Assembly: GCA_028717725.1 (NCBI GenBank)
Contig: JAQUNG010000001.1
Span: 1 to 58,040, forward strand
DNA length: 58,040 nucleotides
DNA from: a bacterium
GTDB lineage: Bacteria > Auribacterota > UBA6266
Direction of reading: 5' to 3'
Under the pieces are notes generated by a model, which searched no databases, was not told where the DNA came from, and saw nothing but the letters and a program-made list of their open reading frames with translations. The translations under genes were made by a program, and so were the position numbers. Within the stretch, counting starts at the first letter, position 1. The number at the start of each line of letters is the position of its first letter. Below are positions 4,811 through 53,157 of this stretch, piece by piece.

Positions 4811-4822
4811 GGAATAAAAATC

Positions 4823-6079: not shown

Positions 6080-6087
6080 GTTTGATT

Positions 6088-16073: not shown

Positions 16074-16777
16074 ATAAGCGCCTTGTTATTATACCCACCT
16101 ATAACGAAAGAAAAAATATAGTCAGGTTGTGCGAAAAAATCATATCGATGGAAGAAGGTTTCGATATCCTGGTCGTTGACGACAATTCACCGGATGGCAC
16201 CGGAGAGCTGGCTGAGAAAATGTCTTCAATGCATCCTGAAATCCATGTGATTAGAAGGTCGGGAAAGATGGGCATAGGGAGTGCTTATATAGAAGGCTTT
16301 AAGTGGGGGTTGGGAAAAGAATATGAGCTGTTTTTTGAAATGGACGCGGATTTCTCTCACAACCCCGAAGATTTGCTCCGGATAACGGGAACGATAAGGG
16401 ATTGTGACTTATGTGTGGGTTCAAGATATATAGAAGGGGGCGGGGTAATAAACTGGCCGCTCTGGAGGATGTTGCTTAGCAAATTTGCAGCCAGGTATTA
16501 TACCAGGATAATAACCGGTATGCCCTTGCACGACGCCACTTCAGGATTCAAATGCTTCAGAAGGACAGTGCTTGAGAATATTGATTTTAACCAGATTCAC
16601 TCTGAAGGATATTCTTTTCAGATCGAAATGCATTACCGCATTTGGAAAAAAGGTTTTCAGATAAAGGAAATCCCCATTATTTTTACAGATAGGCAGCACG
16701 GCCTGTCGAAAATGTCTAAAAAAATTATTTTTGAAGCAATAATTATTGTCTGGAAAATAAAGTTTAGCGTTAAATGA
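16070..16777 (+). CDS. GT2 polyprenol-phosphate sugar synthase (Dpm1/Ppm1-type)
   Basis: VIIPTYNERKNI, VVDDNSPDGT and MDADFSH motifs. GTGA overlap upstream. Sugar specificity not determinable. Confidence 0.8.
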   Translation: MNKRLVIIPTYNERKNIVRLCEKIISMEEGFDILVVDDNSPDGTGELAEKMSSMHPEIHVIRRSGKMGIGSAYIEGFKWGLGKEYELFFEMDADFSHNPEDLLRITGTIRDCDLCVGSRYIEGGGVINWPLWRMLLSKFAARYYTRIITGMPLHDATSGFKCFRRTVLENIDFNQIHSEGYSFQIEMHYRIWKKGFQIKEIPIIFTDRQHGLSKMSKKIIFEAIIIVWKIKFSVK

Positions 16778-38454: not shown

Positions 38455-39183
38455 TTGAAAATCTCGGTAATTATACCGGCTTATAATGAAGAAAATTCGA
38501 TCGGCTCCGCCATTAATATTATAAATGAGTTTCTTAGTGCGGGCGGCGAAGATTACGAGATTATAGTTGTTGATGACGGCAGTAAAGACAGGTCTGCCCA
38601 GGCAGTGAACAAACTAGCGAATGAAAATAAAAGAGTTATACTGCTGAAAAACGGCGCAAACAGGGGTAAGGGATTTTCGGTGAAACGAGGGATGCTGCAG
38701 GCGACGGGGGATATAAGGCTTTTTGTCGACGCGGATATGTCGACCCCTATAGAAACATTGACCGGTATGATTGAATTTATAAATAAGGGATATGATGTTG
38801 TCGCGGGTTCAAGAAGAGCAGGAGGGGCTGTCATTGAGATAAGACAGAACTTCCTGCGTGAGAATATGGGGAGGGTATTTAATCTTCTTGTCCGGCTTAT
38901 AGTTTTGCGCGGTTTTAAAGATACTCAATGCGGGTTTAAGCTTTTTACGAAAAAAGCCGCCGAAAATATATTTAAGCTTCAAAAATTCGACAATTTTGTT
39001 TTCGACGTGGAAATATTATATATAGCGAAAAAACTGGGTTTTAAAATCATGGAAGCTCCCGTAAGATGGTATAATTCCGCCAATTCAAAAGTAAGGCCTT
39101 TCAGAGATGCATTGTCAATGTTCATTGACCTTTTTAAAATAAGGTTTTTTCACAGAAAAATCAGGAAAATGGCTGATGTCTAA
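38455..39183 (+). CDS. GT2 polyprenyl-phosphate glycosyltransferase (Alg5/DPG-synthase-like, soluble)
   Basis: VIIPAYNEENSI, VVDDGSKDRS, NRGKG and FVDADMSTP motifs. TTG start. Confidence 0.75.
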   Translation: MKISVIIPAYNEENSIGSAINIINEFLSAGGEDYEIIVVDDGSKDRSAQAVNKLANENKRVILLKNGANRGKGFSVKRGMLQATGDIRLFVDADMSTPIETLTGMIEFINKGYDVVAGSRRAGGAVIEIRQNFLRENMGRVFNLLVRLIVLRGFKDTQCGFKLFTKKAAENIFKLQKFDNFVFDVEILYIAKKLGFKIMEAPVRWYNSANSKVRPFRDALSMFIDLFKIRFFHRKIRKMADV

Positions 39184-40933
39184 AAGGACGGTCATATTCC
39201 TCCTTGTCATAGCTCTTGCAGTTGCGTTGAGAGTTTGGGGTCTTGGTTTCGGCCTTCCGGATATTTTGCATGCCGACGAACCGATAGTCGTCAATAAGGC
39301 AATGTCTTTCGGGACGGGTGATTTTAACCCTCACTGGTTCCTGATACCGCCTTTAACCTCATATATGCTTTTTATTTTATACGGCATATTTTTTCTGGCA
39401 GGGCATATATCGGGATTTTTCCATTCCACGGAAGATTTTATCTCTCTGTATCTATCGGACCCGACATATTTTTATTTGATAGGCAGGTTTTTTCTCGGTG
39501 TAGTCCCTTCTATAATATCAGTTTTGATGGTGCGCAAAATTGCAAAAGAAGTGTCCGGGAATGAAGATATATCGATAGCCGCGGCTTTTTTCCTGTCGGT
39601 AACTTTCCTTTTTGTAAGGGATGCTCACTACATATATGCGGATATGCCGAGGATTGCATCAATGTTGTGCGCTATTTTCTATTATGTGAAGATATCGAAA
39701 GGGAATAAAACGGCGGATTATGTTTCTGCATCTTTTTTTACGGGGCTCGCTGTGGCGTTTAAATACAATTCGGCCCTGCTGGTTTTCCCTTTTTTTGCCG
39801 CTTTTTTTATGGGCAGGAATGCGGAGCAAACTCACTCGCGGAAGATTAAAAAACTTTTCTTATCCGTTTTTATAATGTTTGCAGTTTATATTTTGCTTAA
39901 CCCCTTTTCCCTGCTGGATTTTAAAACTTTTATAAATGATTTCAAAAATCAGTCGTCGCAAATGTCCGCAGCCGGAATTTGCCATCACGTTTCTTATTCG
40001 CTTCTTCACGGAATGTCGCTTAGCCTTCTCGCATGTTCCGCGCTGGGAATAGCAAGAGAATTGTACATGAAGAATAAAACAGCGCTGATTTTGATAATAT
40101 TTATAGCTGCTGAATATGCCGCCCTGGTTTTTTTCAGCCAGCCCCATGCCAGGTATGTCCTTCCCCTGATACCCGTGCTGTGTTATTTTGCGGCGTCGTT
40201 TATCTATAATCTTTCCCGCATCTTGTCGGGGGATAGCAGAAGAACGGTATGGTTTGTTGTAATTTGTCTGGTGATGTCTGCCCCGACATTTATAAAAACC
40301 TGTTATTCCGACTATTTGTTTTCGGCCGGTGATACCCGGAAAGAAGCAAAACGATGGATAGAGGAAAATATACGGAAAGGGGAAAAGATCGCCCTTGACC
40401 ATACATTTTTTGGTCCTGCGCTTTTGCCGGACAAAAGCCAGATACAGCATAAAATCACTTTGGCCGGGCGGAAAAAAATATCCGGAGCAAAAACCCTTAA
40501 ATTGAAAAAAATGCTGGAAATGGCGGATAAAAACGAGGGTTATAAACTGTACTATTTAAAAGACGAACCTTCCGATGATGAAACTTTTTTGTTCTCTATG
40601 CCCCAGATACCTTTCAGTTACGATTATTTAATTGATAATAATATCAGGTTTGTTGTCATTACCAGCGTGAATCCGGATTGCGGACATCCTGATTTTATCA
40701 AAAAAATATATGAAAGCGCCGACCTCGCGGCCGAATTTAGCCCATACAGAGATGCCGGAAGAAAATATTCGTCAAACAGGTATGTCCTTACTGGAGGCCC
40801 TTTTCTTGACAATGAAGTTTATTTAAGAAACAAAACCGGATATACTATTCGGATATATGAAATTGGTTCTGACGGAAAATCGGGTAATATTTTGAGAAGG
40901 ATAAAACGCAAAAACATAAAGAGGTGGGAATGA
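39176..40933 (+). CDS. GT-C fold membrane glycosyltransferase (ArnT/PMT_2, GT39-like)
   Basis: RVWGLGFGLPDILHADEP first-loop motif, at least 11 TM segments and a ~180-aa soluble C-terminal domain. Confidence 0.7.
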   Translation: MSKRTVIFLLVIALAVALRVWGLGFGLPDILHADEPIVVNKAMSFGTGDFNPHWFLIPPLTSYMLFILYGIFFLAGHISGFFHSTEDFISLYLSDPTYFYLIGRFFLGVVPSIISVLMVRKIAKEVSGNEDISIAAAFFLSVTFLFVRDAHYIYADMPRIASMLCAIFYYVKISKGNKTADYVSASFFTGLAVAFKYNSALLVFPFFAAFFMGRNAEQTHSRKIKKLFLSVFIMFAVYILLNPFSLLDFKTFINDFKNQSSQMSAAGICHHVSYSLLHGMSLSLLACSALGIARELYMKNKTALILIIFIAAEYAALVFFSQPHARYVLPLIPVLCYFAASFIYNLSRILSGDSRRTVWFVVICLVMSAPTFIKTCYSDYLFSAGDTRKEAKRWIEENIRKGEKIALDHTFFGPALLPDKSQIQHKITLAGRKKISGAKTLKLKKMLEMADKNEGYKLYYLKDEPSDDETFLFSMPQIPFSYDYLIDNNIRFVVITSVNPDCGHPDFIKKIYESADLAAEFSPYRDAGRKYSSNRYVLTGGPFLDNEVYLRNKTGYTIRIYEIGSDGKSGNILRRIKRKNIKRWE

Positions 40934-41790
40934 AGGACAGAATAACGATACTGGTGCCGGTTTATAATGAGAAAGAAGCTTTGCCCAAAGTTCTGGATGA
41001 TTTAAGGGATATGATGAAAAAATCGGGTTATGAAGGAGATATTCTGGTTGTTGACGACGGTTCGGACGATAGCTCGGCGGCAATAGCCGAATCTAAAGGA
41101 GCCAAAGTCATAAAGCACAGTCGCAATCTCGGTAACGGCGCGGCGAGAACAACCGGGGTTAAAGCCTCTGAAAACGAATTGATAGTTATGATAGACGGCG
41201 ATTGCACATATCCCGCGGATGCAATCCCCGGTATGATTGAAATGATGAAACAGAACGATATGGTTATAGGAGCGAGAAAAGCCGAAAAAGGAACTTTGAA
41301 GATATTGAGGACGCCCGCGAAGATGTTCATAAAAAAACTTGCGGAATATCTGGTGAGCGATAAAATACCGGATCTTAATTCCGGCTTGAGGGTGTTGAAA
41401 AAATCCCATGCGGTGAAATATCTGAAATACCTGCCCACCACTCATTCGTGGGTAAGCACCATAACTCTGGTGCTACTTTCGAAAGGATACAGGGTCGGAT
41501 ATCTCCCCATAGATTATTATCCGAGAGTAGGGAGATCGACATTTCATCCTTTGAGAGATACTTACAACTATCTTTCCCTTGTGATCAGGACGATTATGTA
41601 CTTTAACCCGCTTCGTTTTTTCCTGCCTGTTTCGATTTTTATTTTTCTTGCGGCTCTGATTAAATCGGCGGTCGACTTTATTTATACGCGCAGCATCCAG
41701 GAATCGGACATAATTATTTTTTCTACGTCTGTCATAGTGTTTGCCATAGGGCTTTTGGCTGACCTTATAGTGATGATGCATAAGGAGTAA
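40924..41790 (+). CDS. GT2 polyprenyl-phosphate glycosyltransferase with two C-terminal TM helices (ArnC/GtrB architecture)
   Basis: ILVPVYNEKEAL, VVDDGSDDSS and IDGDCTYP motifs, plus two terminal hydrophobic helices. Confidence 0.75.
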   Translation: MGMKDRITILVPVYNEKEALPKVLDDLRDMMKKSGYEGDILVVDDGSDDSSAAIAESKGAKVIKHSRNLGNGAARTTGVKASENELIVMIDGDCTYPADAIPGMIEMMKQNDMVIGARKAEKGTLKILRTPAKMFIKKLAEYLVSDKIPDLNSGLRVLKKSHAVKYLKYLPTTHSWVSTITLVLLSKGYRVGYLPIDYYPRVGRSTFHPLRDTYNYLSLVIRTIMYFNPLRFFLPVSIFIFLAALIKSAVDFIYTRSIQESDIIIFSTSVIVFAIGLLADLIVMMHKE

Positions 41791-41920
41791 ATTAAAAAAT
41801 ACGAAACTCGAATATCAGCGTTCAAAACAAGAAACATGAATATTGAAACAAGAAATAAAGATAAAAAGGTTCGAACTATAGATAGCTCAGATAGGAAAGG
41901 TTAAGATTGGGGATAAGGAG

Positions 41921-42023
41921 TTAAGCAAGTATTTTGAACGGATTCGGGAGCTGTTTTTATCTTAGCGACAGCCTCGGAATCCCGCCTTTGGCGGGGTGAG
42001 AATGAGTGAAAATGCTTGCTTAA
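41921..42023 (+). other. ~103-nt element closed by a 15-bp inverted repeat, with two internal hairpins (candidate structured RNA or MITE-like element)
   Basis: TTAAGCAAGTATTTT (41921-35) pairs with AAAATGCTTGCTTAA (42009-23), 15 bp with one G-T. Inner stems are GGATTC/GAATCC plus GCTGT/ACAGC, and CCGCC-TTT-GGCGG. Confidence 0.3.
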
Positions 42024-42072
42024 ATCAGTTCCTGTCAGCAGGTGTGGTTAAAAAAATAAGTGGTGTATAAGC

Positions 42073-43659
42073 ATGAAAGACCTTTATTTAAAAATTGCAA
42101 TGAGACAGATTCCCAGGATACTTACCCTGGCGGACAGGGATCCGGCGAGCCCGACTTACGGATGTTTTGACAGGGAATACTGGCATTACGGGACCGCGGA
42201 TTTTCCCTGCGGTATGAGCCAGGAATTTGTCCTGCCTCTTGCTCTTGTGTATAGTTATGAATTTAGGGAAAATCCCTACTACAGGCAGGAAGCTGTAAAA
42301 GACCTTGTTATCGCCGGTATAAAGTTTGCGGAAAGAAGCTCCCATCGCGACGGCTCCTGCGATGATTATTTCCCTTTCGAGAGGGCTTACGGGGCGACTG
42401 CGTTTTCTCTTTACGCTTTTGCGGAATCATGCCGGCTGATCGGGATTAAAGACTCTGAAATCACAGGATTCCTCGAAAAAAGAGGTAAATGGATTTCATC
42501 CCGTTTGGAGTCGGGAAAGCTCACGAACCATCATGCGATAGCCGGTTTAGCTCTTCTCCTTCTGTGGCAGTTAACGGGGAGAGAAACATACAGGGAAGAA
42601 GCGCTGAATAAAATAAAGGTATGCCTTTTGTGGCAGTCGGATGAAGGCTGGTTTCCGGAGTATGAAGGATGTGACCCCGGTTATCTTACGATGACGATAG
42701 ATTTTCTCGCGAGGGCGTATTCAATTACAAATAACGCCGCGCTCCTCGCATCGCTCCGGAAAGCAGTGGAATTTCTTGATTTTTTTGTTTATCCCGATGG
42801 CACTTGCGGCGGCGAATTGGGAAGCAGAGACACATATATTTTTATGCCGCACGGTCTTGAACTGATGTCGAAAGAATGCTCAAAGGCGGTTGAAATCAAA
42901 ACAAGGTACCTGAAATCGCTTGAAAACGGACTGGAAACCAATTACGAAGACAACAGAATATTCGGGCATATGACTTACAGCCATCTTTTTTCCTGGATTG
43001 ATTATTGTGATTTAAGGCGGGAGCCGGAGAGAGGTCCTTTCCGTAAATATTTTCCGGAAGCGGGAATGTATGCTGAGAAAAAGGGGAGTTATTTTTTTGC
43101 CGTTTGTGTCCATAAAGGGGGGATTTTTAAGATTTTCAGGGGCGAAGATTTAATAGCCTCCGATTCCGGATTCCTCTGTGAATTTTCGGATGGCAAAATC
43201 GGAGTTTCAAACCGGATTGAGGGAAAAAAATCTTACAGGGAAAAACCGTGCTGTGTGAGAGGCGAGCTTTATTATTATAAGCGCAAACTTATGTCGCCTT
43301 CGAAACAGGTTGTTTTCCGGCTGATCCTGATGATTCTCGGCCCTTTTCCCCGCATAAGCGGGATGTTACGCAGGATTCTGCAAAAAATTCTTATTACCGG
43401 CAAAAAGAAAGCTCCCGTTTCTTTTAAAAGGGAGTTTTCTCTGGAAGAAAAGGGGCTGACCGTTGAGGATTCGGTTTTTCTCGGCGGGAAAAAGAATGTC
43501 AAGCGGCTTTATTTCGCTGCTAATAAGGTTTCGATTTATATAGCGATGGCGGAATGCTTCAATAAGAATATGCTGTTAAAATGGCGGCAGTTCAGCGCGG
43601 ATGACATTAAAACTTTGAATGCGGAGCGTAAAACAAAGATAATAAGGCGTTTCGAATGA
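42073..43659 (+). CDS. Hypothetical 528-aa cytoplasmic protein (helix-rich N-terminal half, beta-rich C-terminal half)
   Basis: Long ORF, translationally coupled (ATGA) to the downstream gene. The layout is reminiscent of (alpha/alpha)-toroid plus beta-sandwich polysaccharide lyase/epimerase-like proteins. No motif recognised. Confidence 0.55.
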   Translation: MKDLYLKIAMRQIPRILTLADRDPASPTYGCFDREYWHYGTADFPCGMSQEFVLPLALVYSYEFRENPYYRQEAVKDLVIAGIKFAERSSHRDGSCDDYFPFERAYGATAFSLYAFAESCRLIGIKDSEITGFLEKRGKWISSRLESGKLTNHHAIAGLALLLLWQLTGRETYREEALNKIKVCLLWQSDEGWFPEYEGCDPGYLTMTIDFLARAYSITNNAALLASLRKAVEFLDFFVYPDGTCGGELGSRDTYIFMPHGLELMSKECSKAVEIKTRYLKSLENGLETNYEDNRIFGHMTYSHLFSWIDYCDLRREPERGPFRKYFPEAGMYAEKKGSYFFAVCVHKGGIFKIFRGEDLIASDSGFLCEFSDGKIGVSNRIEGKKSYREKPCCVRGELYYYKRKLMSPSKQVVFRLILMILGPFPRISGMLRRILQKILITGKKKAPVSFKREFSLEEKGLTVEDSVFLGGKKNVKRLYFAANKVSIYIAMAECFNKNMLLKWRQFSADDIKTLNAERKTKIIRRFE

Positions 43660-44606
43660 ACTGGAAAAAAGTAAAAACGGCTGCAACATTTCTGATTGCG
43701 CTATATATCCTTTTTGTAATTTATTCTAAAATAGACCTGCGCGCGTTCTGGAATTTATTCAGGGACATCGATTATTTCTGGTTTGCGGCGGGGATGTTTA
43801 TTTTTATAGTCTCCGCGTTGATTTCGTCTTTCAGGTATGTTGTTATCCTGTCCGGCCGGGCAAAAATACCGCTCTTGTCTTCATTAAAGCTGTATCTGGC
43901 GGGGAACTCTCTTAATATGGCGCTTCCTTCAAAAATAGGGGATTTGAGCAAAGCGGTTTTTTTAAAAAAAGAGGGTATTCTGGGTTATGCCGAAGGGTTC
44001 AGCAGTGTTATTGTCGAGAAGATATTCGATGTTTCAGCTTTAAGTTCTGTTATGGTCGCGGGACTTGTTTTTCTGCCTTTAAATACGTTTTTTACGCGGG
44101 ATATAAAAAAGGTATTCTTAGCGGCGGGGATGTTTTTCTTGTCCCTGCCTCTTGCCGTTTATATTCTGGGTGCTTTCAAGGTTAACGTGTTAAACAAGAC
44201 CCTTTCAAAAGCAGATGAATATTTCGCGCGGTTCCATGATTTTTTGATGGCGCTGAAGAAGAGTCCCGGAAAACTCGTCTTAATAGCTTTACTGTCTTTT
44301 TTTCTCTGGTTTTCTCATGTTTTTCAGGTGTTCTGTTTTTTGAAATCTTTTGATAATTCCGCGTCCGCCGCGATATCTTTCGCCCTGATTCCGATAGCTA
44401 TATTCATAGGGCTGATACCCATTGCTTTCGCCGGCATAGGAACAAGAGATAAAGCATTGATAGTGCTTTTCGGCTGGTATGGGTATCCAGATTACCTTAT
44501 GGCGGCAGTGGGAATAATGTGCACCGTGAGATATGTCATTCCCGCGCTTTTCGGGTTGCCGTTTATGATAAAATATATGGCGAAAGACAAAAAAACAGTT
44601 AGATAG
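43656..44606 (+). CDS. UPF0104 / lysyl-PG-synthase-TM-region-like 'flippase-like' membrane protein
   Basis: About 8 TM segments. LAGNSLNMALPSKIGDLSKAVFLKK matches the family's LP..GD loop pattern as recalled. Confidence 0.55.
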   Translation: MNWKKVKTAATFLIALYILFVIYSKIDLRAFWNLFRDIDYFWFAAGMFIFIVSALISSFRYVVILSGRAKIPLLSSLKLYLAGNSLNMALPSKIGDLSKAVFLKKEGILGYAEGFSSVIVEKIFDVSALSSVMVAGLVFLPLNTFFTRDIKKVFLAAGMFFLSLPLAVYILGAFKVNVLNKTLSKADEYFARFHDFLMALKKSPGKLVLIALLSFFLWFSHVFQVFCFLKSFDNSASAAISFALIPIAIFIGLIPIAFAGIGTRDKALIVLFGWYGYPDYLMAAVGIMCTVRYVIPALFGLPFMIKYMAKDKKTVR

Positions 44607-44710
44607 TTTAATGGTTAAGCAGTTCAGTGGTTAGAAGAAATAGAATCGGTAATCGAAACTATTGGACTTCTGAACTATTCAACCGCTGAACCGAATGAAT
44701 GGAGAAATAA

Positions 44711-45433
44711 ATGGAAAAAGGCATCTCAATAATACTACCGGCTCTTAATGAAGAAGAAAACATAGGGCATGCAGTACATGATATAATTGAATATTTTAAG
44801 GAAAAAAAGGAATTATACGAAATCCTTATCGTAAACGACGGATCTGATGATATGACGCCGGCTCTGGCCGACAGACTTTCTCAAAAATATAAACAGGTTA
44901 GAGTCCTTCATCATAAGGCTAATGAGGGATATGGAAAATCGCTGAGAGACGGTTTTCATGCCGCTTCATATGAATACCTTTTTTTTACCGATTGCGACCG
45001 GCAATTCGATATTTCGGGCTTGGATATAATGTTTCCCCTGATTAAAACCGGTGTTGTCGATCTTATCATAGGGTACAGGCTCAAGAGGAAGGACTCTTTT
45101 GTCAGGAAATTCCTTTCTTGGGGCTATAATACGCTTGTAGGTTTTATTTTTGATTTGAATGTGAAAGATATTGATTGCGCGTTCAAGATATTCGATAAGA
45201 GGATTTTCGAAAAAATAGAGATCACTTCGAAGAAATTTTTTGTAAATACGGAAATTCTGTGCAAGGCGCATTATTACGGATATAATATGATTGAAGTCGG
45301 GGTGCCTCATTTTCCGCGGTTTGCGGGTAAATCAACGGTATCCCTGAAGTATATACCTCTTACGGTGAAAGAGCTTTTCAGGATATGGTTTGATATGAAA
45401 AAGCTCCGGAAATCAAAAAAACACGCCATTTGA
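44711..45433 (+). CDS. GT2 polyprenyl-phosphate glycosyltransferase-like (soluble)
   Basis: IILPALNEEENI, IVNDGSDD, NEGYGKS and FFTDCDRQF motifs. Confidence 0.75.
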   Translation: MEKGISIILPALNEEENIGHAVHDIIEYFKEKKELYEILIVNDGSDDMTPALADRLSQKYKQVRVLHHKANEGYGKSLRDGFHAASYEYLFFTDCDRQFDISGLDIMFPLIKTGVVDLIIGYRLKRKDSFVRKFLSWGYNTLVGFIFDLNVKDIDCAFKIFDKRIFEKIEITSKKFFVNTEILCKAHYYGYNMIEVGVPHFPRFAGKSTVSLKYIPLTVKELFRIWFDMKKLRKSKKHAI

Positions 45434-45614
45434 ATATACCAGTTTAAGCCTGGTATGTTACCAGCGAAAATTCGGCAAAAGTCAGATAAAATAAAAAACC
45501 GTCAATTAATTTAATGTTTTTGTCGACTGTATATGCCGCTATTTTTCATATAAACTTTTATTTTTTTATGCTGTTAATTTGACGACATGCCCGGAAATAA
45601 GGCATTTTTGAGAT

Positions 45615-46205
45615 ATGGACACGAGGGCCGACAATCTGCGGGTTTTGCTCCTTGTTTTTGCCCTTTATTCTTTTAGTGTCCCCTTATACGCCGATAATCC
45701 TTCCCGGGGTATGCTTGATTATAAAAATGATAATTTTGAGATAAGCACGCCTTATCCCGCAGGGTGGTTTGTAAAAGAGCATTCAGACGGCGATTCAAAA
45801 CAGGTTTTCATATCGGAGAAAGAAATCAAGAAATCCGAAGATATGTTTAAAACCGGCATTGTAATAACAAAAATATGTAATTACAGCAAGTATTTCGGTT
45901 ATGAATTCGCCAGTTCGGAAGAAGCCGCAAAACAGATAGTGGAATCGCATCTCTCTGATTTTATGGAAAACGCGAGAGATTACTACCTTGGTTCTTTCGG
46001 TCCGGCGAGTTCCGGCGGCCGAAGCCGCCCGTATGTCGCGGATCTGAGGTTTGTGTGTAATGACGCCTCAAGGGTAAGAGAATATATTTTTGTGGCCTAT
46101 GAAGAGAATACGCTTGTGTTTGTTACAATGGAAGCTCCTGATTCCGAGTTCCTGAAATACAAAGATCTATACGATACGATTATAGCTTCGATACGGGTTT
46201 TTTAA
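45615..46205 (+). CDS. Secreted protein of unknown function
   Basis: N-terminal signal-peptide-like segment (LRVLLLVFALYSFSVPLYA/DN). 196 aa. No recognised domain. Confidence 0.6.
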   Translation: MDTRADNLRVLLLVFALYSFSVPLYADNPSRGMLDYKNDNFEISTPYPAGWFVKEHSDGDSKQVFISEKEIKKSEDMFKTGIVITKICNYSKYFGYEFASSEEAAKQIVESHLSDFMENARDYYLGSFGPASSGGRSRPYVADLRFVCNDASRVREYIFVAYEENTLVFVTMEAPDSEFLKYKDLYDTIIASIRVF

Positions 46206-46221
46206 TCAAGGAGGTCGAATT

Positions 46222-46323
46222 ATGAATTGGTTAAAAGCCAGGAAAGACCGCCGTGGCAAATGGACAGTGATTCCCTCAAAAAAAAGATATTTTAAGAGTT
46301 TTAAATCCCCCGGCCGGAAATAA
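46222..46323 (+). CDS. Candidate small ORF: 33-aa highly basic peptide
   Basis: AAGGAGG (46208-14) lies 7 nt before ATG 46222. Product MNWLKARKDRRGKWTVIPSKKRYFKSFKSPGRK* (13 K/R, 1 D). Below the ORF-track cutoff. Confidence 0.3.
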   Translation: MNWLKARKDRRGKWTVIPSKKRYFKSFKSPGRK

Positions 46324-46561
46324 TCGGTCTTTTGCGTTTTGCCGGCGGGGACATTACGATAAACTGATTTCTAAAGTTGCGATACGACGCATCGGTGTTT
46401 CTCGGAATCCGGCAATGGGTCGGGAGTTAAGCTGTATCTGTAGATATATCAATAAGATGCGGAAATGCGCCGCTGAGGGGTGAGGTATGTCCCTTTTTAC
46501 TTTCCTCCCGAAGCCCTGCGTCCGGTCTATCCTTATATACTTCCTTTTAAACTTATCGCTG

Positions 46562-46570
46562 TGATATAAT
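46562..46570 (+). promoter_or_regulatory. Extended -10 promoter element TGaTATAAT
   Basis: Exact TGnTATAAT match about 62 nt upstream of the GTG start of the B12-radical SAM gene. There is no good -35, which extended -10 promoters do not require. Confidence 0.3.
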
Positions 46571-46631
46571 ACCGGAGATCGGTCCTGGATTTATATACTG
46601 TTAACGGAATTAAAAACATTACGATATAAAA

Positions 46632-48026
46632 GTGAAAATACTCTTTTTAAGGCCTGTTACGCCCGGGGCAATTGTCCTGAATCTGATTCCTCCGATAGGA
46701 ATCGGATATCTAGCGGCGGTTTCGAGAAATGCCGGGTATGAGGTCGCCCTTCTGGATTGCATCCTTAAAAATCTTGATTACGCCGGCTTTGAAAAGGAAC
46801 TGAAGAATATAATGCCCGATGTTGTAGCTATGACAGCTTTTTCTCATGATATTCCTTCTGCCCGGAAAACAACGGCTATAATAAAAAAGGTTAATCCGGA
46901 AATTAAAGTGATAATCGGAGGACCGCATTCTTCCGGGATGCCCGGGGACACACTTAATATTCTGGATAATGTCGATTTTGCGTTTAAGGGAGAGGCGGAA
47001 AGAAGCATTGTAAAACTTTTGAAATTCATTGAAAAAAAAGAGGGCAGTCTCGAAAATATAAAAGGTCTGATATGGAGGAACGGGGATAAAATAAACATTA
47101 ATGAACAGGATTTTCCCGAAAACCTTGATGAAATACCATATCCGGCATGGGATCTTATGGAACCCGGGGATTATCCCGATGCTCCGCAGGGCGTTATTTT
47201 CAGGAAAACACCAGTTGCTCCCCTTGTCATTACGAGAGGATGTCCTTTCAGATGTACTTTTTGCGCGGGTTGGACCGTTACAGGAAAAAAGATAAGGACA
47301 AGAAGTCTTGGCAATGTTCAGGGAGAAATAGAACTGCTCTATAAGAAATACGGGGTCAGGGAAATACATGTTCTTGACGATAATTTCTCGATGAACATTG
47401 AGTTTGTGAGGGGTTTCTGCGATTGGCTTATCGGGACGGGGTGGAACATATCATGGTGCTGTCCGAACGGCTTAAGATGCGACACGCTGGACGAAGATAC
47501 CGTAAAACTTATGAAAAAGTCCGGCTGCTATTATATATCCATAGGGATTGAATCAGGTTCGGACAGAATACTGAAAAATATGAAAAAAGGACTTTTGGTA
47601 GAGAAGATCAAGGAACAGGTAAAAATGATTACAGGTGCCGGGATGGATGTTAACGGATTCTTTATACTCGGATATCCGGGAGAAACCGAAGAAGATATAC
47701 GTAAAACGATTGATTTTTCCAAAGAACTAAAACTGACAAGAGCCGCGTTTTACAGCTATATGCCCCTGCCGGGAACGGAATCTTACGAAACGCTGCTTAA
47801 ATTAAAAGAGATACAGGCCATAGATTTCGGTAAGATGACCGAGATGACGGTGGCATATACGCCACGCGGAATGAGCAGGGAGAGGCTTAAAGAACTGCAG
47901 AGAAAAGCGCACCTTGAATTTTATTTGAGGCCTGAGATAATGTTTAAACTGCTGAAAGAGATTAAATCGGTGAATCAGTTGAAATATATTGCCAAAAGAG
48001 CGAAAGCGTATTTATTTGACGGATGA
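46632..48026 (+). CDS. B12-binding-domain radical SAM enzyme (class B), paralogue of 16774-18282
   Basis: Cobalamin-binding-like N-terminus (IGIGYLAAV...LLD) and cluster motif TRGCPFRCTFCA. Shares the (I/L)P(Y/L)PAWDL(M/L) motif with the other copy. GTG start. Confidence 0.8.
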   Translation: MKILFLRPVTPGAIVLNLIPPIGIGYLAAVSRNAGYEVALLDCILKNLDYAGFEKELKNIMPDVVAMTAFSHDIPSARKTTAIIKKVNPEIKVIIGGPHSSGMPGDTLNILDNVDFAFKGEAERSIVKLLKFIEKKEGSLENIKGLIWRNGDKININEQDFPENLDEIPYPAWDLMEPGDYPDAPQGVIFRKTPVAPLVITRGCPFRCTFCAGWTVTGKKIRTRSLGNVQGEIELLYKKYGVREIHVLDDNFSMNIEFVRGFCDWLIGTGWNISWCCPNGLRCDTLDEDTVKLMKKSGCYYISIGIESGSDRILKNMKKGLLVEKIKEQVKMITGAGMDVNGFFILGYPGETEEDIRKTIDFSKELKLTRAAFYSYMPLPGTESYETLLKLKEIQAIDFGKMTEMTVAYTPRGMSRERLKELQRKAHLEFYLRPEIMFKLLKEIKSVNQLKYIAKRAKAYLFDG

Positions 48027-50500
48027 AAAAAATAATTTCAGGCAGAAAATATTTTATAATAATCCTGTTCCTGTCGGTTTTGCTTTATCTCGGTGATCAG
48101 GTTTTTTTAAAATCCAGTTTTCTCAGCGGTGATTATAGGTCCCAGCATGTGCCGTGGGCGATAGCGCTGGATCGGGCCGTAAAAGACCTGTCACTGCCGC
48201 TTTGGGATATATATACCCACTCCGGGTTCCCCTTGCTGGCTGAAGGTCAGGTCGCGGCGCTGTATCCGGCGAACCTGTTTTTCTACATGCTTTTTCCCGT
48301 TGATATTGCGTATGCATGGTCCAATGTATTCCATTACCTGCTCGCGTTTCTGTTTATGTACTTATTCCTTTCGAATGCTGGGCTTGACGATTTTGCTGCT
48401 TCGGCGGGCGCGCTGTTTTTCTCTTTCGGGAGCGCCAGCGGCGGCGGGTATTATAACACGATATCACTGAAAGTCCTTTGTTGGTTTCCTCTCACGCTTT
48501 ATCTCACAGACAAATATTTTTCAGCAAAAAAAATGTATTTTTTGCTGATAATAGGCGTTGTCTTTGCGCAGCAGGTGCTGGCAGGGTATTTTCAATATGC
48601 TTTTTATTCGATAGTTGTTACAGTGCTCTACTACTATTATGTGTCTTTTGTCGAGGGCAGGAGTAGGTTGGTAAAAAGCATATGCAAAGATACGGCCCGG
48701 CTTTTTCTCTCGGCCGCAACCGCGCTTATAATAGCAGCTCCTCAAATTTACGAGTCTTTGAAATTAATCAATCTGTGTTCCAGGGGGGACAGGGACATTT
48801 ATTTTGCCTTATGGGGTTCCTTCAACCCATGCGGCGCAGCGACATTGTTTTTCCCCCATTTGGGCTGGATAACTTTCGGCGCGGTTTTTATCGGTGTCGT
48901 GCCGCTGTCGATGACATTTTTTATAAAAAGGAATGTGGTCAACAGGCAGTTGAAATTTATGTTGTTTCTTTTCTGTTGTTCGCTGGTTTTTGCCCTGGGC
49001 AGATACAGCCCTGCCTATAGGTTTATATTAAATACGGTAAAATTTTACGGGTTCAGGGTTCCCGCGAAATTCCTGTTCTTCAGCGGTGTTTCTCTGAGCG
49101 TTATAGCCGCATACGGGATTCATTCCCTGCTTAAAAACAGGGATGACAGGGATTTTTTGAAAAAAAGATTTTTCATATGGGTCGTTGCGGCGATTCTTGT
49201 TGTTTGCCTGCTTGGCACTGCGAATATTGCCCTTGAACATAAAGAATTCTGGCTGGAAAAGGGACGTGAATATGTGATAAACAATGTTTACGGCAAGATG
49301 CATCACAAACATTCGCTGGACGAATATATGGCGAGATTGGAGCCCATATATGATTCGATAAAATCCGCTGTCTATTTGCGCAACCCGTTTATTTTAACGG
49401 GAGTGTTTTCAGTCATAATTTCTCTTGCGCTTTTATATCTCTATTCGAGATTTTCCGTTAAGAACGGTATTTTTATCGCCGCTTTTCTGTTTGTTTCAAT
49501 GTGCGAGCTCCTGGTTTTTAACAACAGGTGTAAAATAAAGACAAATATGGAATCGCTCGGCACATTCAAAGCCGAATCACAGATAGCGGATTTTATAGGC
49601 CGGGATAAAGGACTATTCCGCATTTATGAATTTGTTGAATCAGGTATCGGTAACACGGAAGAAATATTCGAGGTTCTGCCCAACAGGTCTATAATCTACC
49701 GTTTATATGATATCGGGTGTTATACGCCTCTGGTTATGAAAGATTATTACGATTTTATAGGACGTCTCGGCTCTGTGGATGATTCAACGGGAGCGGCTAT
49801 TCCCGATAAAAAAGCACTTCGCGATGATCTGAATCTGCTGAGAATGCTTAACGTTAAGTATGTGTTGTCTGTGGATGAGATCCCGTTTCTCGACCATGTC
49901 GCGGATTTTGACGGATGCGGGATATATAAGTTAAAAGGTTCTCACGGCAGATTTTCCGTAACGGATAAAATAGTGTTTTCCGAAGGGGATAGGATCCGGG
50001 AAAATATCATCCGATTGGCCGGCACAGCCGAAAAACCCTTCGTTTATGTTGAGAATGGAAACGAATGTGACATTGATTTAAAAAATCTGAAGTCATATAA
50101 AAGCAAAATCGAAGTCAAGAAATACGCCGCCGGCAGTGTTGTTTTGAACGTGTTCAACGAGCCGGGTTCCGCAGTGCTCGCGACTTCAGAGCTCTATTAT
50201 CCGGGCTGGAAGCTTTTTGTTAACGGTAAAAGAGGCGAATTTCTGAAAATCAATTCGGTTTTCAGAGGGGTTTTACTGCCTAAAGGACAGACAAAAATAG
50301 AAATGTTTTATCGTCCTTACATTTTTTATATTTTGGGGATAATCAGTTTTCTGGGATATTTATTCTGTATTGGTTTTTGCGTTTCTTGCGAGAGGGGAAT
50401 AAAGCAGTCATTAATATGGGTTTCCTGTGTGTTCGCGGTTTGCGTCTTTATTGTATTTTTCTGTGTATTCATATATTCCCAGGCGGCGGGCAAACTATGA
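48023..50500 (+). CDS. YfhO-like large GT-C membrane glycosyltransferase
   Basis: 825 aa with many TM segments. C-terminal YYPGWKLFVNGK motif typical of YfhO-family proteins, plus a terminal TM. ATGA overlap upstream. Confidence 0.6.
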   Translation: MKKIISGRKYFIIILFLSVLLYLGDQVFLKSSFLSGDYRSQHVPWAIALDRAVKDLSLPLWDIYTHSGFPLLAEGQVAALYPANLFFYMLFPVDIAYAWSNVFHYLLAFLFMYLFLSNAGLDDFAASAGALFFSFGSASGGGYYNTISLKVLCWFPLTLYLTDKYFSAKKMYFLLIIGVVFAQQVLAGYFQYAFYSIVVTVLYYYYVSFVEGRSRLVKSICKDTARLFLSAATALIIAAPQIYESLKLINLCSRGDRDIYFALWGSFNPCGAATLFFPHLGWITFGAVFIGVVPLSMTFFIKRNVVNRQLKFMLFLFCCSLVFALGRYSPAYRFILNTVKFYGFRVPAKFLFFSGVSLSVIAAYGIHSLLKNRDDRDFLKKRFFIWVVAAILVVCLLGTANIALEHKEFWLEKGREYVINNVYGKMHHKHSLDEYMARLEPIYDSIKSAVYLRNPFILTGVFSVIISLALLYLYSRFSVKNGIFIAAFLFVSMCELLVFNNRCKIKTNMESLGTFKAESQIADFIGRDKGLFRIYEFVESGIGNTEEIFEVLPNRSIIYRLYDIGCYTPLVMKDYYDFIGRLGSVDDSTGAAIPDKKALRDDLNLLRMLNVKYVLSVDEIPFLDHVADFDGCGIYKLKGSHGRFSVTDKIVFSEGDRIRENIIRLAGTAEKPFVYVENGNECDIDLKNLKSYKSKIEVKKYAAGSVVLNVFNEPGSAVLATSELYYPGWKLFVNGKRGEFLKINSVFRGVLLPKGQTKIEMFYRPYIFYILGIISFLGYLFCIGFCVSCERGIKQSLIWVSCVFAVCVFIVFFCVFIYSQAAGKL

Positions 50501-52347
50501 CGGCATTTTTCAATATCTTTTTTATGTTATTTGTTCTGTGGATTTGCGCCTGCGCCGGAAAGACAGTTCTGGACGCCGTGAAACAGGCATCCCTCAACCG
50601 TTTGAGGGATTTTGTCCTTTCGTCCGGGATAGGTTTCAGTGTGTTGATAATCTTTATCTCGGTCTTTGCGGCCGCGGGTTTTTTGCGACGCTGGACGGGT
50701 TTTGCTGTTTTAACCGTTATTGTCTTTATGGGTTTTAAGAATCTTATTTTATCGCTGAGGGGATTCCCGAAATCCGTGAAAACACTGTTTTCATTAAGAT
50801 TGAGCATTGTGCAATGGGTTTTGGTTCTGGTTCTGGCGGCTGGAGTTTTGTCGGTATCGGTCTGCGCTTCGGCGCCTCCGACGGGAATGGATTCTCTTGT
50901 ATATCACTTGAATCTTCCGAAGGAATTTATTGAATATCAGGGAATATATGCCGTTCCTTACGATGTTAACGCGTTATGGCCGCTGAACATTGAAATGCTT
51001 TTTTTATTAGGACTTCTTTTTAAAAATGCCGTTATAGCAAAAATGGTCAATTTCTTAACGGGTGTTTTATGTATATTTTCTGTTTATCTGATTTCGAGGA
51101 ATTTTGCTTCAAAGACAGCATCTTTAACCGCCGCGGCGCTTTTTTATCTGATGCCGGCGGTAGTTTCCCAGTCGGGATACGCGTATGTCGATGTTGCGAT
51201 AACATTTTTCTGTTCTCTTATGGTGATTTTGTTGCTTGATTATGCGAAAAACGGCGAAAGAACGGTTGTAATACTATCAGGATTGTTCGCGGGAATACTC
51301 ATAGGATCGAAGTTTACGAATGCGCTGATAGTGGGCGTTATTTTTATTGCTTTTACGGTCTGCGATCTGACAGAGAGAGGGGGGACAAAGCGTCTTTTGT
51401 TCAACGCGGTTTTATTTTGTTCCGTTGCTGTTCTTGTGTCGTGTCATTGGTATATAAGAGCGTATCTCATTAGGGGGAATCCCGTTTTCCCGTTTTTACA
51501 GGGGTTTTTCGGAAATGATGTTGTGCGCGAATTTAAAACATCGGCGGCCAATACAGGACTACTTGATTTTGTGTTTACCCCGTTTAAAGCTGTGTTTAAA
51601 CCGGAGCTTTATGGGGGAATAGCCAACCAGATAGGACCTATTCCTCTTGGATTTTTGCCGATAGCGGTTATTTCGGCGCGGCGCAGTAAATACGCAAGGC
51701 TGCTGCTGTCTTGTTTTCTGGCGTATTTCTGTTTGTGGTTTGTAGTTAAGCAGAACCTGCGATTTCTGCTTCCCTGCATGGTTATGTTTTATCCTGTTGT
51801 CGGTTTGAGTTTTGATGATTTATACGGTTCAGGCAGGTCGGTTTTTATTATATTTTCGTTTATTGCGGCGCTTGTTATTTTACTCTTTTTGGGCGCGGCT
51901 TTTTATTACGCGGTTCCCGCCGCACCTTTGTTTTTCGGAAATGAGTATCCCGAGAATTATCTTCTTGAAAAAGAACCGACCTATGGATTGGGCCTGAGCG
52001 TGGAAAAAACAGTGCCGAGAGACGGGACAGTGCTGATGGTGGGTGAAATAAAAAGATTTTATATAAAAAGGAAAACGGTCAGGGCGGATGGTTTTTACCA
52101 TATGTCCGATTATTTTGACAGAGTGAAGTCAAAGGAAGATGCGTTTGCGTTCCTGAAAGATGCCGGCATAGAATATGTCGTTTCTTCGAACATCAAAATT
52201 CCGGAAAGGAAAAGCGCTTTTTCCTTTAACCTTTCCAGCCTTATGCAGGATAATGATTTTACATCCGTTTATTTTACCCGTGTGGGCGGATATGAATTCA
52301 GGCGAGGGGACAACGTGATAATATATAATATTTATAAAATGCGCTGA
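50497..52347 (+). CDS. GT-C fold membrane glycosyltransferase (ArnT/PMT_2-like)
   Basis: DSLVYHLNLP first-loop motif, at least 11 TM segments and a soluble C-terminal domain. ATG 50497 overlaps the upstream TGA; the ORF-track start 50377 lies inside the upstream gene. Confidence 0.65.
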   Translation: MTAFFNIFFMLFVLWICACAGKTVLDAVKQASLNRLRDFVLSSGIGFSVLIIFISVFAAAGFLRRWTGFAVLTVIVFMGFKNLILSLRGFPKSVKTLFSLRLSIVQWVLVLVLAAGVLSVSVCASAPPTGMDSLVYHLNLPKEFIEYQGIYAVPYDVNALWPLNIEMLFLLGLLFKNAVIAKMVNFLTGVLCIFSVYLISRNFASKTASLTAAALFYLMPAVVSQSGYAYVDVAITFFCSLMVILLLDYAKNGERTVVILSGLFAGILIGSKFTNALIVGVIFIAFTVCDLTERGGTKRLLFNAVLFCSVAVLVSCHWYIRAYLIRGNPVFPFLQGFFGNDVVREFKTSAANTGLLDFVFTPFKAVFKPELYGGIANQIGPIPLGFLPIAVISARRSKYARLLLSCFLAYFCLWFVVKQNLRFLLPCMVMFYPVVGLSFDDLYGSGRSVFIIFSFIAALVILLFLGAAFYYAVPAAPLFFGNEYPENYLLEKEPTYGLGLSVEKTVPRDGTVLMVGEIKRFYIKRKTVRADGFYHMSDYFDRVKSKEDAFAFLKDAGIEYVVSSNIKIPERKSAFSFNLSSLMQDNDFTSVYFTRVGGYEFRRGDNVIIYNIYKMR

Positions 52348-52359
52348 CAGGAGGATGGT

Positions 52360-53157
52360 ATGTTGGAGCCGATTGATAAATTAAGGGGTATGTGCCAGAA
52401 AAAAGATTATAAGAAAACCGGAAATATGATGGCAAGATTAATAACCCGCGATATGGCTTTATATATCACCAGGCTGCTGATACCTACGGGAATTACGGCA
52501 AATCAGGTTGTATTTTTGACGATTATGATGGGAATTATATCCGCGGCGTGTTTTGCTTTCGGCGGAGGTTTTATGATGCTTGCCGGAGCCTTGTTTTTTC
52601 AGCTTTGGTATCTTTCCGACCATGTGGACGGGCAGATAGCAAGATACAGAAATGCATCGAGCCTTACTGGCGCATTTTATGATTTCTATGCGCATTATAT
52701 AGTCCATTCCCTTGTGCTCGGGGGACTGGCCCTTGGTCTTTATATGAGGTATGAAAATCTGGGAATTCTGATTTTGGGACTTGCCGCGTGTTTTTCCGTG
52801 AATATGGTTTCATTGATTAATGATTGTGTTTATAAGGCGTTTTATAACGGCTTGTCGCGGGAGGAAAAAGATTTGACTTTTAGAGCAGGTTCTCAAACAG
52901 CGGAAAAGAATAAAATAAGGGAAGGTTTACCTAAAAAAATATTTATGTTTATGCATAAACTTACGGAAATACACGTTATTATGAATGTAGTTACGATTGC
53001 CGTAATCGTCGATTTTTTCTTCGGCACGGATCTGATTCTCTTTGAAACGGCCGTTCTGGCGTTGGTAGCTACGGCGGTTTGGGTATTTAAATTGGCGCGC
53101 ATCGTAACGGCAAAAGAAGTAGACAGGAAATATTCGGAATTTTTCAGGGGGCGGTAG
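52360..53157 (+). CDS. CDP-alcohol phosphatidyltransferase-family membrane protein
   Basis: DHVDGQIARYRNASSLTGAFYDFYAH fits D-G-x2-A-R-x8-G-x3-D-x3-D, except the last Asp is His. Multiple TM segments. Confidence 0.7.
   Translation: MLEPIDKLRGMCQKKDYKKTGNMMARLITRDMALYITRLLIPTGITANQVVFLTIMMGIISAACFAFGGGFMMLAGALFFQLWYLSDHVDGQIARYRNASSLTGAFYDFYAHYIVHSLVLGGLALGLYMRYENLGILILGLAACFSVNMVSLINDCVYKAFYNGLSREEKDLTFRAGSQTAEKNKIREGLPKKIFMFMHKLTEIHVIMNVVTIAVIVDFFFGTDLILFETAVLALVATAVWVFKLARIVTAKEVDRKYSEFFRGR

Follow-up and report, generated by a model that had tools for sequence, protein, structure and literature searches.

Extracytoplasmic glycosylation from lipid-phosphate-linked sugars, as in the Gtr, Arn, YfhO and PMT systems, shapes phage receptors, resistance to antimicrobial peptides and immune recognition. 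What task might be served by many such enzymes encoded side by side is the question raised by the 58-kb contig JAQUNG010000001.1 of an uncultured bacterium, the nearest relatives of which are metagenome-assembled genomes (MAGs) of Candidatus Auribacterota/Aureabacteria and UBP3, within the PVC group. The whole stretch analysed, 58,040 nucleotides in length, is referred to here as the window. Nearly every gene lies on the plus strand, as do all genes and elements of modules A and B and those adjoining them, and together they form one long envelope-glycan supercluster. An earlier note, made from the letters of this DNA alone, had described positions 38,455 to 52,347 (module B) as part of several parallel Gtr/Arn/YfhO-like systems in one operon. 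The reading favoured here, to which we assign a probability of roughly 55%, is that module B comprises two or three units of the Gtr/Arn/CsbB-YfhO kind, dependent on polyprenyl-phosphate sugars, in which the lipid-linked sugars would be tailored in the cytoplasm before they are flipped, the whole lying in a lipopolysaccharide (LPS)/O-antigen supercluster.

Synthases, GT-C transferases and gene order

All ten open reading frames (ORFs) listed for module B by the earlier note were found, and they classify as it had stated, with Pfam matches above the curated gathering score wherever a family exists. Three encode small GT2 enzymes: GT2a, a soluble protein of 242 amino acids (38455..39183; Glycos_transf_2, 109.5 bits), GT2b, of 288 amino acids with two C-terminal transmembrane (TM) helices (40924..41790; 94.5 bits), and GT2c, a soluble protein of 240 amino acids (44711..45433; 98.6 bits). 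The hydrophobic helices of GT2b span residues 232-250 and 263-281; TM helices are lacking from GT2a and GT2c, as they are from DPM1 of humans and PpgS of mycobacteria. Among solved structures, all three, and the GT2 encoded at 16070 in module A, came closest to Pyrococcus DPMS, ArnC and Synechocystis GtrB (top matches in the Protein Data Bank (PDB) 5mlz, 9hwj/9bhc/8vxh and 5ekp), the matches running through the GT-A domain into the interface-helix region and covering residues 1-204 of GT2a, 7-246 of GT2b and 5-225 of GT2c. GT2a matched DPMS (5mlz) with an E-value of 8.7e-21 and ArnC (9hwj) with 1.2e-18, and the module A enzyme matched 5mlz with 3.6e-39. For GT2b, GtrB (5ekp) was among the top solved relatives, the similarity extending to the stretch that precedes the TM helices, and its best NCBIfam matches were models of the AglJ/AglD type. 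By homology, GT2a, GT2b and GT2c are polyprenyl-phosphate-sugar-synthase-like proteins of the DPMS/GtrB/ArnC type.

The three large membrane proteins, taken by the earlier note for GT-C transferases, all gave GT-C-clan Pfam matches above threshold. GTC1 (39176..40933), of 585 amino acids with a C-terminal soluble domain, matched PMT_2 with 41.7 bits (cut-off 26.1) and PMT with 24.6 bits (cut-off 22.7). The YfhO-family protein (48023..50500; 825 amino acids) matched YfhO with 84.6 bits (cut-off 28.5), and GTC3 (50497..52347; 616 amino acids) matched PMT with 29.8 bits (cut-off 22.7) and PMT_2 with 30.0 bits (cut-off 26.1); hydropathy indicates approximately nine or more TM helices in the former and approximately 11 in the latter. 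A longer ORF for GTC3 opens at 50377; the ATG at 50497 overlaps the stop codon of the YfhO gene, and a gene caller on the same contig gives the product of 616 amino acids. Searched by sequence against the PDB, the three proteins yielded no match even at E<=1. Fold modelling covered GTC1 alone of the three. Its AlphaFold (AF2) model, with a predicted local distance difference test (pLDDT) score of 92.2, matched exclusively GT-C enzymes in Foldseek searches at E<1e-3 (STT3, ALG12/ALG9, ArnT, AglB, PglB, Pmt4, DPY19, AftD and AftB), and Emb enzymes were also among the matches. Residues D34-E35, in the loop after the first TM helix (TM1), were invariant in an alignment of 48 homologues, as were R104, D156, Y197 and R326. 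GTC3 carries a "D-SLVYHL" motif after a TM helix, the Asp of which is shared with an Elusimicrobia homologue, and weakly matches the Agl23 model of NCBIfam. The "SGDYRSQH" segment after TM1 of the YfhO-family protein is found in close relatives only and is weak evidence for a first-loop acidic motif. On their family matches the three proteins belong to the GT-C superfamily, and GTC1 has, as modelled, a GT-C fold; by analogy, they would use lipid-phosphate-linked sugar donors at the extracytoplasmic face of the membrane. Module A (12210..18282) encodes a GT-C enzyme, a methyltransferase dependent on S-adenosylmethionine (SAM), a second GT-C enzyme, a DPMS-like GT2 and a cobalamin (B12)-binding radical SAM (B12-rSAM) enzyme, both GT-C enzymes (12210 and 14613) being PMT_2 proteins. 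With these included, the earlier tally for the window, five GT-C enzymes together with four GT2 enzymes resembling lipid-phosphate-sugar synthases, was right.

The order of these genes is not a chance juxtaposition. From the Wzx-type (Polysacc_synt/MatE) flippase gene directly upstream of module B (36844..38349), which has the same position in the relatives L006, L007 and L008, to the UDP-GlcNAc 2-epimerase gene beyond it, the order is entire in L006 (a 1.99-Mb contig) and L007 and is kept in L008 as far as the end of the contig; the full order of module B is present in all three. Proteins of these loci are 73-84% identical to those of the window. More distant relatives, L009 and L010 (53-58% identity), hold only the first six genes, that is, GT2a, GTC1, GT2b, the 528-residue protein described below, the UPF0104 protein and GT2c (38455-45433). 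After these six, L010 has an ABC-2/Wzt-like transporter and heptose genes in place of the genes for p196, the B12-rSAM enzyme, the YfhO-family protein and GTC3, and the block 45615-52347 was found only in the closest relatives. Since the first six genes recur alone in L009 and L010 and the second block is replaced in L010, module B is, as judged from gene order, real but composite. Given the Pfam and fold matches of the GT-C enzymes, the likeness of the GT2 enzymes to DPMS, ArnC and GtrB and the order kept in relatives, the Gtr/Arn/YfhO logic of the earlier note is the right frame for the module; the single operon that went with it did not stand, and the window has no GtrA-type small flippase gene.

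Two putative tailoring enzymes and their partners

The earlier note had also pointed to extra uncharacterised parts, and this proved its most informative suggestion: a protein of 528 amino acids and a B12-rSAM enzyme each hold a conserved position beside a synthase-type GT2. The first, here termed unk528 (42073..43659), matched nothing above threshold in Pfam or NCBIfam, the nearest being Pec_lyase with 16.8 bits against a cut-off of 22. More than 2,283 homologues were found, with 41-45% identity across phyla; a profile search of 1.84 billion representatives returned 1,148 clusters at 50% identity with E<=1e-30, and a scan of 185,579 species, each represented by one genome, placed the family in at least 584. 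Among the matches listed were filamentous cyanobacteria (Lyngbya, Trichodesmium, Leptolyngbya and Limnothrix), Desulfarculaceae, Chthoniobacterales, Blastocatellia, Myxococcota, Dadabacteria and Tectomicrobia. An AF2 model built from 52 sequences (pLDDT 92.6, predicted template-modelling score 0.93) consists of an N-terminal (α/α) toroid of approximately residues 1-310 and a C-terminal β-sandwich. Foldseek matched it to polysaccharide lyases (PL33, 8r6z, E 2.8e-8; PL8; glycosaminoglycan lyases; PL15 alginate lyase; xanthan lyase) with E-values from 3e-8 to 1e-5, and the toroid also matched GH127 and AGE-type 2-epimerases. The family profile had no sequence match among the solved structures of the PDB. 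Some members gave marginal Pfam matches to Pec_lyase, Alginate_lyase, GH127 and GH88; a precomputed "PF25840" label on some homologues was set aside, rescanning having given marginal matches to the six-hairpin clan only.

Both a signal peptide and a TM helix are lacking from unk528. Residues 405-450 form a helical amphipathic hairpin with 10 Lys/Arg and no acidic residues and with a hydrophobic moment more than 3 standard deviations above the protein mean, a combination of charge and moment that would suit binding to a membrane surface. Invariant residues include N152-H153, Y197, Y204, R252 and H260, and two cysteines are near-invariant. Two members of the family, P0432 (802 amino acids) and P0436 (787 amino acids), are extended at the C-terminus by a class I SAM methyltransferase domain (Methyltransf_23/11), and these fusions would argue for a cytoplasmic role in small-molecule tailoring. 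Taken together, unk528 looks to be a cytoplasmic, membrane-associated protein; the reaction may be an elimination, an epimerisation or a hydrolysis.

Directly after unk528, the stop codon of which its start overlaps, lies the gene for a UPF0104 protein of 316 amino acids (43656..44606), a member of the LPG_synthase_TM or MprF-flippase-domain family with approximately seven TM helices, matching PF03706 with 137 bits (cut-off 33.4) and TIGR00374 with 60.7 bits (cut-off 43.2). No unassigned small hydrophobic ORF that might encode a four-TM flippase of the GtrA type was found in module B or in the intergenic regions of the window. The UPF0104 protein is the sole dedicated flippase candidate, a role predicted by analogy, with the Wzx-type gene lying just upstream of the module.

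GT2b, unk528 and the UPF0104 protein form a trio that is, by sequence comparison, conserved across many phyla. In bacterium HR37 and a Tectomicrobia MAG, the trio lies amid unrelated housekeeping genes, with a gene for a multi-TM protein before it and one for a GT4 enzyme after it; the identities to the proteins of the window are 52% for the TM-anchored GT2, 44% for unk528 and 41% for UPF0104. Of 82 loci, 48 have a UPF0104 gene and 40 a DPMS-like GT2 gene no more than 1.5 kb from unk528; these counts are lower bounds, the neighbouring ORFs having been searched with the single sequences of the window. The multi-TM partner of the trio belongs to no Pfam family; its TM1 is followed by a conserved "VQDDARQH" loop, its C-terminal domain is soluble, and it may represent a GT-C family. 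No homology between it and GTC1 was detected by BLASTP, and a profile search of the PDB was also empty. Proteins of 520-600 amino acids with the extended motif "VQDDARQH(I/V)FWM" occur in the cyanobacterial loci L014, L016, L020, L027, L070 and L076 and also in L002, L004, L015 and L026; in cyanobacteria, two paralogues with "DDARQH" are often found near the unk528 gene.

The second putative tailoring enzyme, rSAM_B (46632..48026; 464 amino acids), matched the B12-binding domain PF02310 with 68.3 bits and the Radical_SAM domain PF04055 with 94.4 bits, and its CxxxCxxC motif (C204/C208/C211) is invariant in 30 orthologues. Orthologues with 43-57% identity are found in Omnitrophota, Nitrospirota, Elusimicrobia and DPANN archaea; the B12-rSAM enzyme of module A (16774) is 33% identical. 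Two loci, L087 and L088 (Nitrospirota), encode an orthologue of GT2c (54-55% identity; L087:7297-8004 and L088:7300-8004) directly before an orthologue of rSAM_B (50-53%), the gene ends overlapping, with a SAM methyltransferase alongside. An Elusimicrobia locus (L090) has the rSAM gene followed by a small GT2 gene, in a cluster that also includes further rSAM paralogues, methyltransferase genes and the homologue of GTC3 (E 2e-41). By these comparisons, GT2c and rSAM_B are a pair conserved across phyla, and it is proposed from their adjacency that rSAM_B would tailor the sugar of GT2c by C-methylation or rearrangement. Two further loci run GT2b-like gene (E 1e-59), rSAM, methyltransferase, UPF0104 (L123) and GT2b-like gene (E 1e-73), rSAM, GT2, UPF0104 (L138). 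Lying between the GT2b-like gene and UPF0104, within three genes, the relative of rSAM_B there holds the slot of unk528. Among 43 metagenome loci with adequate flanks, a DPMS-like GT2 gene lies within 6 kb of the rSAM gene in 19, and further B12-rSAM paralogues are present in 20. Tandem arrays of three to five B12-rSAM paralogues, interleaved with small GT2 and SAM methyltransferase genes, were observed in L136, L162, L170, L087 and L090.

Assembled into a pathway, these proteins would act in four steps. Each of the DPMS/GtrB-like enzymes (38455, 40924 and 44711) would load one sugar, derived from a nucleotide sugar, onto polyprenyl phosphate at the cytoplasmic face. At least two of the units would then modify the lipid-linked sugar before export, unk528 acting on the product of GT2b and rSAM_B on that of GT2c; tailoring at this stage is suggested by the position of unk528 and B12-rSAM genes beside a synthase-type GT2 gene, and elsewhere between such a gene and UPF0104, and may be compared with the actions of ArnD, NaxD and LgmC. 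The UPF0104 protein, perhaps together with the Wzx-type flippase (36844), would move the lipid-linked sugar to the periplasmic face, where the GT-C enzymes (39176, 48023 and 50497) would transfer it to an exported acceptor, most plausibly the LPS core or O-antigen. The location among LPS genes, in the window as in L010, speaks for LPS as the acceptor without proving it.

Known systems and alternative readings

In Arn-type pathways (ArnC/ArnD/ArnEF/ArnT; FlmF2/NaxD/FlmK of Francisella; LgmABC of Bordetella), the lipid-linked sugar undergoes modification by a cytoplasmic enzyme prior to flipping. To our knowledge, only deformylation, deacetylation and one epimerisation have been established as tailoring reactions on lipid-linked sugars. 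Module B resembles these pathways in combining GT2 loading, a cytoplasmic modifier, a flippase candidate and GT-C transfer in an LPS context, with ArnC near all four small GT2 enzymes and ArnT among the fold matches of GTC1. It differs in that the putative tailoring enzymes are a lyase-fold toroid protein and a B12-rSAM enzyme rather than a deformylase or deacetylase, and in having UPF0104 in place of the SMR-type ArnE/F. The pairing of a GtrB/CsbB-like GT2 with GT-C enzymes, including a true YfhO, recalls the GtrA/GtrB/GtrC and CsbB/GtcA/YfhO systems (PMC8035078, PMC5836110, PMC7389260); unlike those systems, the window lacks a small GtrA/GtcA flippase, places YfhO in a presumably diderm, LPS-bearing lineage and has extra enzymes between synthase and flippase. 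An archaeal neighbourhood described by Makarova et al. (2015, PMC5898192) comprises a UPF0104 protein (arCOG00899), a PMT/STT3-like protein (arCOG00563, MJ_1079) and an AglD-like GT2 (MJ_1080). The same three families adjoin each other here, whereas the present cluster is bacterial, lies in an LPS context and includes the 528-residue family, which is absent from the description in that paper. The two-domain architecture of the unk528 model is shared with PL33, PL8, PL15, heparinase-like, GH127 and AGE-type epimerase proteins. Unlike the lyases among these, which are mostly secreted or periplasmic, unk528 lacks a signal peptide and has an acid-rich invariant set and an inserted basic amphipathic hairpin.

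Another group of systems brings with it a different end product. HpnL is a UPF0104 protein. GpgSDF and HexSDF each join a synthase to a deacetylase and a UPF0104 protein (PMC12713373); in the Hpn system, the GT2 HpnI acts with the deacetylase HpnK and the radical SAM enzyme HpnJ, which is proposed to contract the sugar ring, as for calditol synthase (PMC13459092). Module B has in common with the former a GT, a cytoplasmic modifier and UPF0104 encoded in that order, and with the latter a GT2, a radical SAM enzyme and UPF0104 acting, as proposed, on one lipid-linked sugar. GT2b, unk528 and UPF0104 might accordingly make and export a tailored glycolipid (a glycosyl-phospholipid, -polyprenol or -hopanoid) as an end product, and not a donor for GT-C enzymes, the neighbouring GT-C enzymes belonging to other pathways. 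The order of synthase, modifier and UPF0104 is that of GpgSDF (PMC12713373), many unk528 loci have the trio with no detectable GT-C gene nearby, and the nearest NCBIfam model of rSAM_B is HpnJ, tied with BchE. Set against these points, GT2b resembles polyprenyl-phosphate glycosyltransferases (GtrB, ArnC, AglJ and DPMS), unlike the GT4 synthase GpgS. In HR37, Tectomicrobia, Desulfarculaceae and several cyanobacteria, the trio directly adjoins the gene for a large multi-TM protein whose TM1 leads into an acidic loop, and in Auribacterota this neighbour is a true GT-C enzyme. No deacetylase family matched in the module or the window, the gene between synthase and UPF0104 being that of the lyase-fold protein, and the family scans of the window contained no hopanoid biosynthesis genes. 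The scores of rSAM_B against HpnJ (TIGR03471, 182.4 bits against a cut-off of 577.6) and BchE both fall far below cut-off; assignment to either was rejected and HpnJ kept as a mechanistic analogy. This free-glycolipid reading is considered unlikely.

The number and diversity of the GT-C genes (three PMT_2, one PMT/PMT_2 and one YfhO) admit a second alternative, in which the five GT-C enzymes, together with the four synthases, would assemble an entire glycan on the outer side of the membrane from polyprenyl-phosphate sugars instead of adding single residues as decoration, as mycobacterial arabinan and mannan are built by Emb, Aft and Mpt enzymes from Ppm1/DPA donors. AftD, AftB and Emb are among the fold matches of GTC1, and the window gave no recognisable Wzy or WaaL gene. 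Those matches are no closer to GTC1 than oligosaccharyltransferases (OST), ArnT or ALG enzymes are, there is no sign of processivity, and the Wzx-type flippase, GT4/GT2 enzymes and nonulosonic-acid pathway of the window are those of conventional cytoplasmic assembly of repeat units. We regard periplasmic polymer assembly as improbable.

Slightly more improbable is that the PMT/GT39-like and YfhO-like enzymes glycosylate proteins of the envelope or S-layer, rather than LPS, in the manner of PMTs, mycobacterial Pmt or streptococcal Pgf. The Pfam PMT and PMT_2 matches, the NCBI name of GTC1 ("glycosyltransferase family 39"), a weak match to PgfM2, the position of PgfS as top NCBIfam model of GT2a, and Pmt4 and OST enzymes among the fold matches of GTC1 would all agree with such a role. 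The PgfM2 and PgfS scores are, however, far under their equivalog cut-offs, and PMT_2 also houses ArnT-like lipid A transferases. In the window as in L010, where they precede heptose genes, the genes lie within an LPS core/O-antigen locus, and no candidate gene for an acceptor protein is nearby except that of the small protein p196. That module B is no functional unit, its genes being unrelated glycan genes gathered in a polysaccharide island, would fit the mosaic nature of such loci and the replacement of 45615-52347 in L010, but is very improbable and largely refuted by synteny, given the overlapping stop and start codons and the persistence across phyla of the trio (41-52% identity) and of the GT2c-rSAM pair.

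Several observations weigh against the reading of module B as units that tailor polyprenyl-phosphate sugars before export. The mechanism as a whole, with its lipid carrier, order of steps, pairing of GT-C enzymes with synthases, tailoring chemistry, flipping and acceptor, is drawn from sequence, model and analogy. All three GT2 enzymes missed the equivalog cut-offs of NCBIfam (ArnC, PgfS, AglJ, PpgS and DPhHxTase), the best scores being 94.9 bits for GT2a (PgfS, cut-off 500), 125.4 for GT2b (AglJ, cut-off 325) and 66.2 for GT2c (PgaC, cut-off 422), so that homology discloses neither the donor sugar nor the lipid acceptor. The fold match of unk528 is moderate, with query-normalised TM-scores of 0.46-0.57, and Asp and Glu are frequent in its invariant set, which is atypical for uronate lyases. 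Approximately 40% of the flanked unk528 loci have no adjoining match to UPF0104 or GT2 (by single-sequence phmmer). A GT2 gene directly adjoins the rSAM gene in only 7 of the 43 well-flanked loci, and in L010 GT2c is present and the rSAM is not. Comparison of GTC1 with the "DDARQH" partner by hhalign gave a probability of 0.3% with a narrow profile and of 63% with a broader one (E 7e-5, 105 columns). Finally, flippase activity of UPF0104 proteins has been proven for the MprF type only and is unverified even for GpgF (PMC12713373).

Module B as a whole falls among the known multi-component transmembrane glycosylation systems (PMC8035078). It is set apart from those described by UPF0104 in the predicted flippase role with no GtrA, by two accessory enzyme families that have no parallel in such systems and by a YfhO protein in an LPS-bearing lineage; no published description was found of the 528-residue family or of the pairing of a GT2 with a B12-rSAM enzyme. 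From GpgSDF and the Hpn system, module B differs in having a synthase of the polyprenyl-phosphate glycosyltransferase type, GT-C partners, a modifier other than a deacetylase and no hopanoid genes nearby. A wider proposal is advanced only tentatively: that unk528 and the B12-rSAM clade are interchangeable cytoplasmic cassettes, encoded between a GtrB-like synthase and UPF0104, that would tailor polyprenyl-phosphate monosaccharides, yielding unusual donor sugars (e.g. epimerised, unsaturated, C-methylated or ring-contracted) for GT-C enzymes to place on envelope glycans. The locus brings to light two further candidates for sugar tailoring, the genomic partners of both being conserved and one belonging to a family that extends to bloom-forming cyanobacteria, and offers a likely functional context for an uncharacterised B12-rSAM clade common in candidate phyla and DPANN archaea. 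If the cassette proposal were true, it would imply widespread, undescribed chemistry of lipid-linked sugars in cyanobacteria, Desulfobacterota, Verrucomicrobiota, Acidobacteriota, Omnitrophota and others.

Transcription units and surrounding genes

Judged from gene spacing and sequence signals, the cluster is not one operon but comprises two to four transcription units at the least. Stop and start codons overlap at the junctions of 38455/39176/40924 (the 3' end of the GT2a gene overlapping the start of GTC1 by 8 nucleotides), 42073/43656 and 46632/48023/50497. GT2c is followed by p196 (45615..46205), a protein of 196 amino acids with an N-terminal signal-like hydrophobic segment (residues 8-26), which belongs to no family and was found in the closest relatives only. 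The 426-bp gap between p196 and the rSAM gene (46206-46631) holds a conserved small ORF, a terminator-like hairpin and an extended -10 promoter-like element. The ORF (46222..46323), preceded by a GGAGG ribosome-binding site, encodes a highly basic product of 33 amino acids, MNWLKARKDRRGKWTVIPSKKRYFKSFKSPGRK, and its reading frame is kept in three relatives. The hairpin (46312-46329) covers the last 12 nucleotides and stop codon of the ORF, with a T-run 3' of the ORF. The element TGTGATATAAT (46560..46570) lies approximately 60 nucleotides 5' of the rSAM start codon and is kept in an alignment of four relatives. On the strength of these features, the rSAM, YfhO and GTC3 genes probably form a transcription unit of their own. 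A consensus scan for promoters and terminators found no excess of promoter-like sites (31, against 32.8 in shuffled sequences). A cobalamin riboswitch or other structured RNA in the gap was considered and rejected, there being no Rfam match at the gathering threshold anywhere in the window.

The end that the earlier note had set for the module, 52347, proved arbitrary. The gene for a membrane protein of the CDP-alcohol phosphatidyltransferase family (52360..53157; Pfam), kept in L006 and L007, begins 12 nucleotides after GTC3, and further glycan genes follow; the transcription unit extends past 52347. The supercluster proceeds from the LPS core genes that the earlier note had correctly placed beside the cluster (waaA, lpxK and those for a lipid A acyltransferase and a GT9 heptosyltransferase), with GT4 genes, to module A, to the nonulosonic-acid pathway with the Wzx-type flippase, to module B and lastly to the CDP-alcohol phosphatidyltransferase, the UDP-GlcNAc 2-epimerase and more glycosyltransferases. 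Module A repeats the logic of module B, its GT2 (16070) and rSAM (16774) genes overlapping each other.

Three proteins of the nonulosonic-acid block belong to no Pfam family (20876-22732, 618 amino acids; 29508-30590, 360 amino acids; 33026-34456, 476 amino acids), and the same block encodes ATP-grasp, enolase-superfamily, FMN reductase and CobW-type GTPase proteins and a lone ABC ATPase, which suggests that the nonulosonic acid of this cluster is unusually elaborated. A phosphotransferase system (PTS) EIIA-CBS protein, a CitMHS-family transporter and a second EIIA protein are encoded between waaA and lpxK (3905-6546). The 431-bp gap between module A and a PseB-like gene contains an ORF of 93 amino acids (18452-18733) that by eye resembles helix-turn-helix or excisionase proteins. 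The edge of the LPS cluster is marked by a radical SAM-SPASM protein (137-1153), and a similar one follows the heptose genes of L010 (14707-15774).

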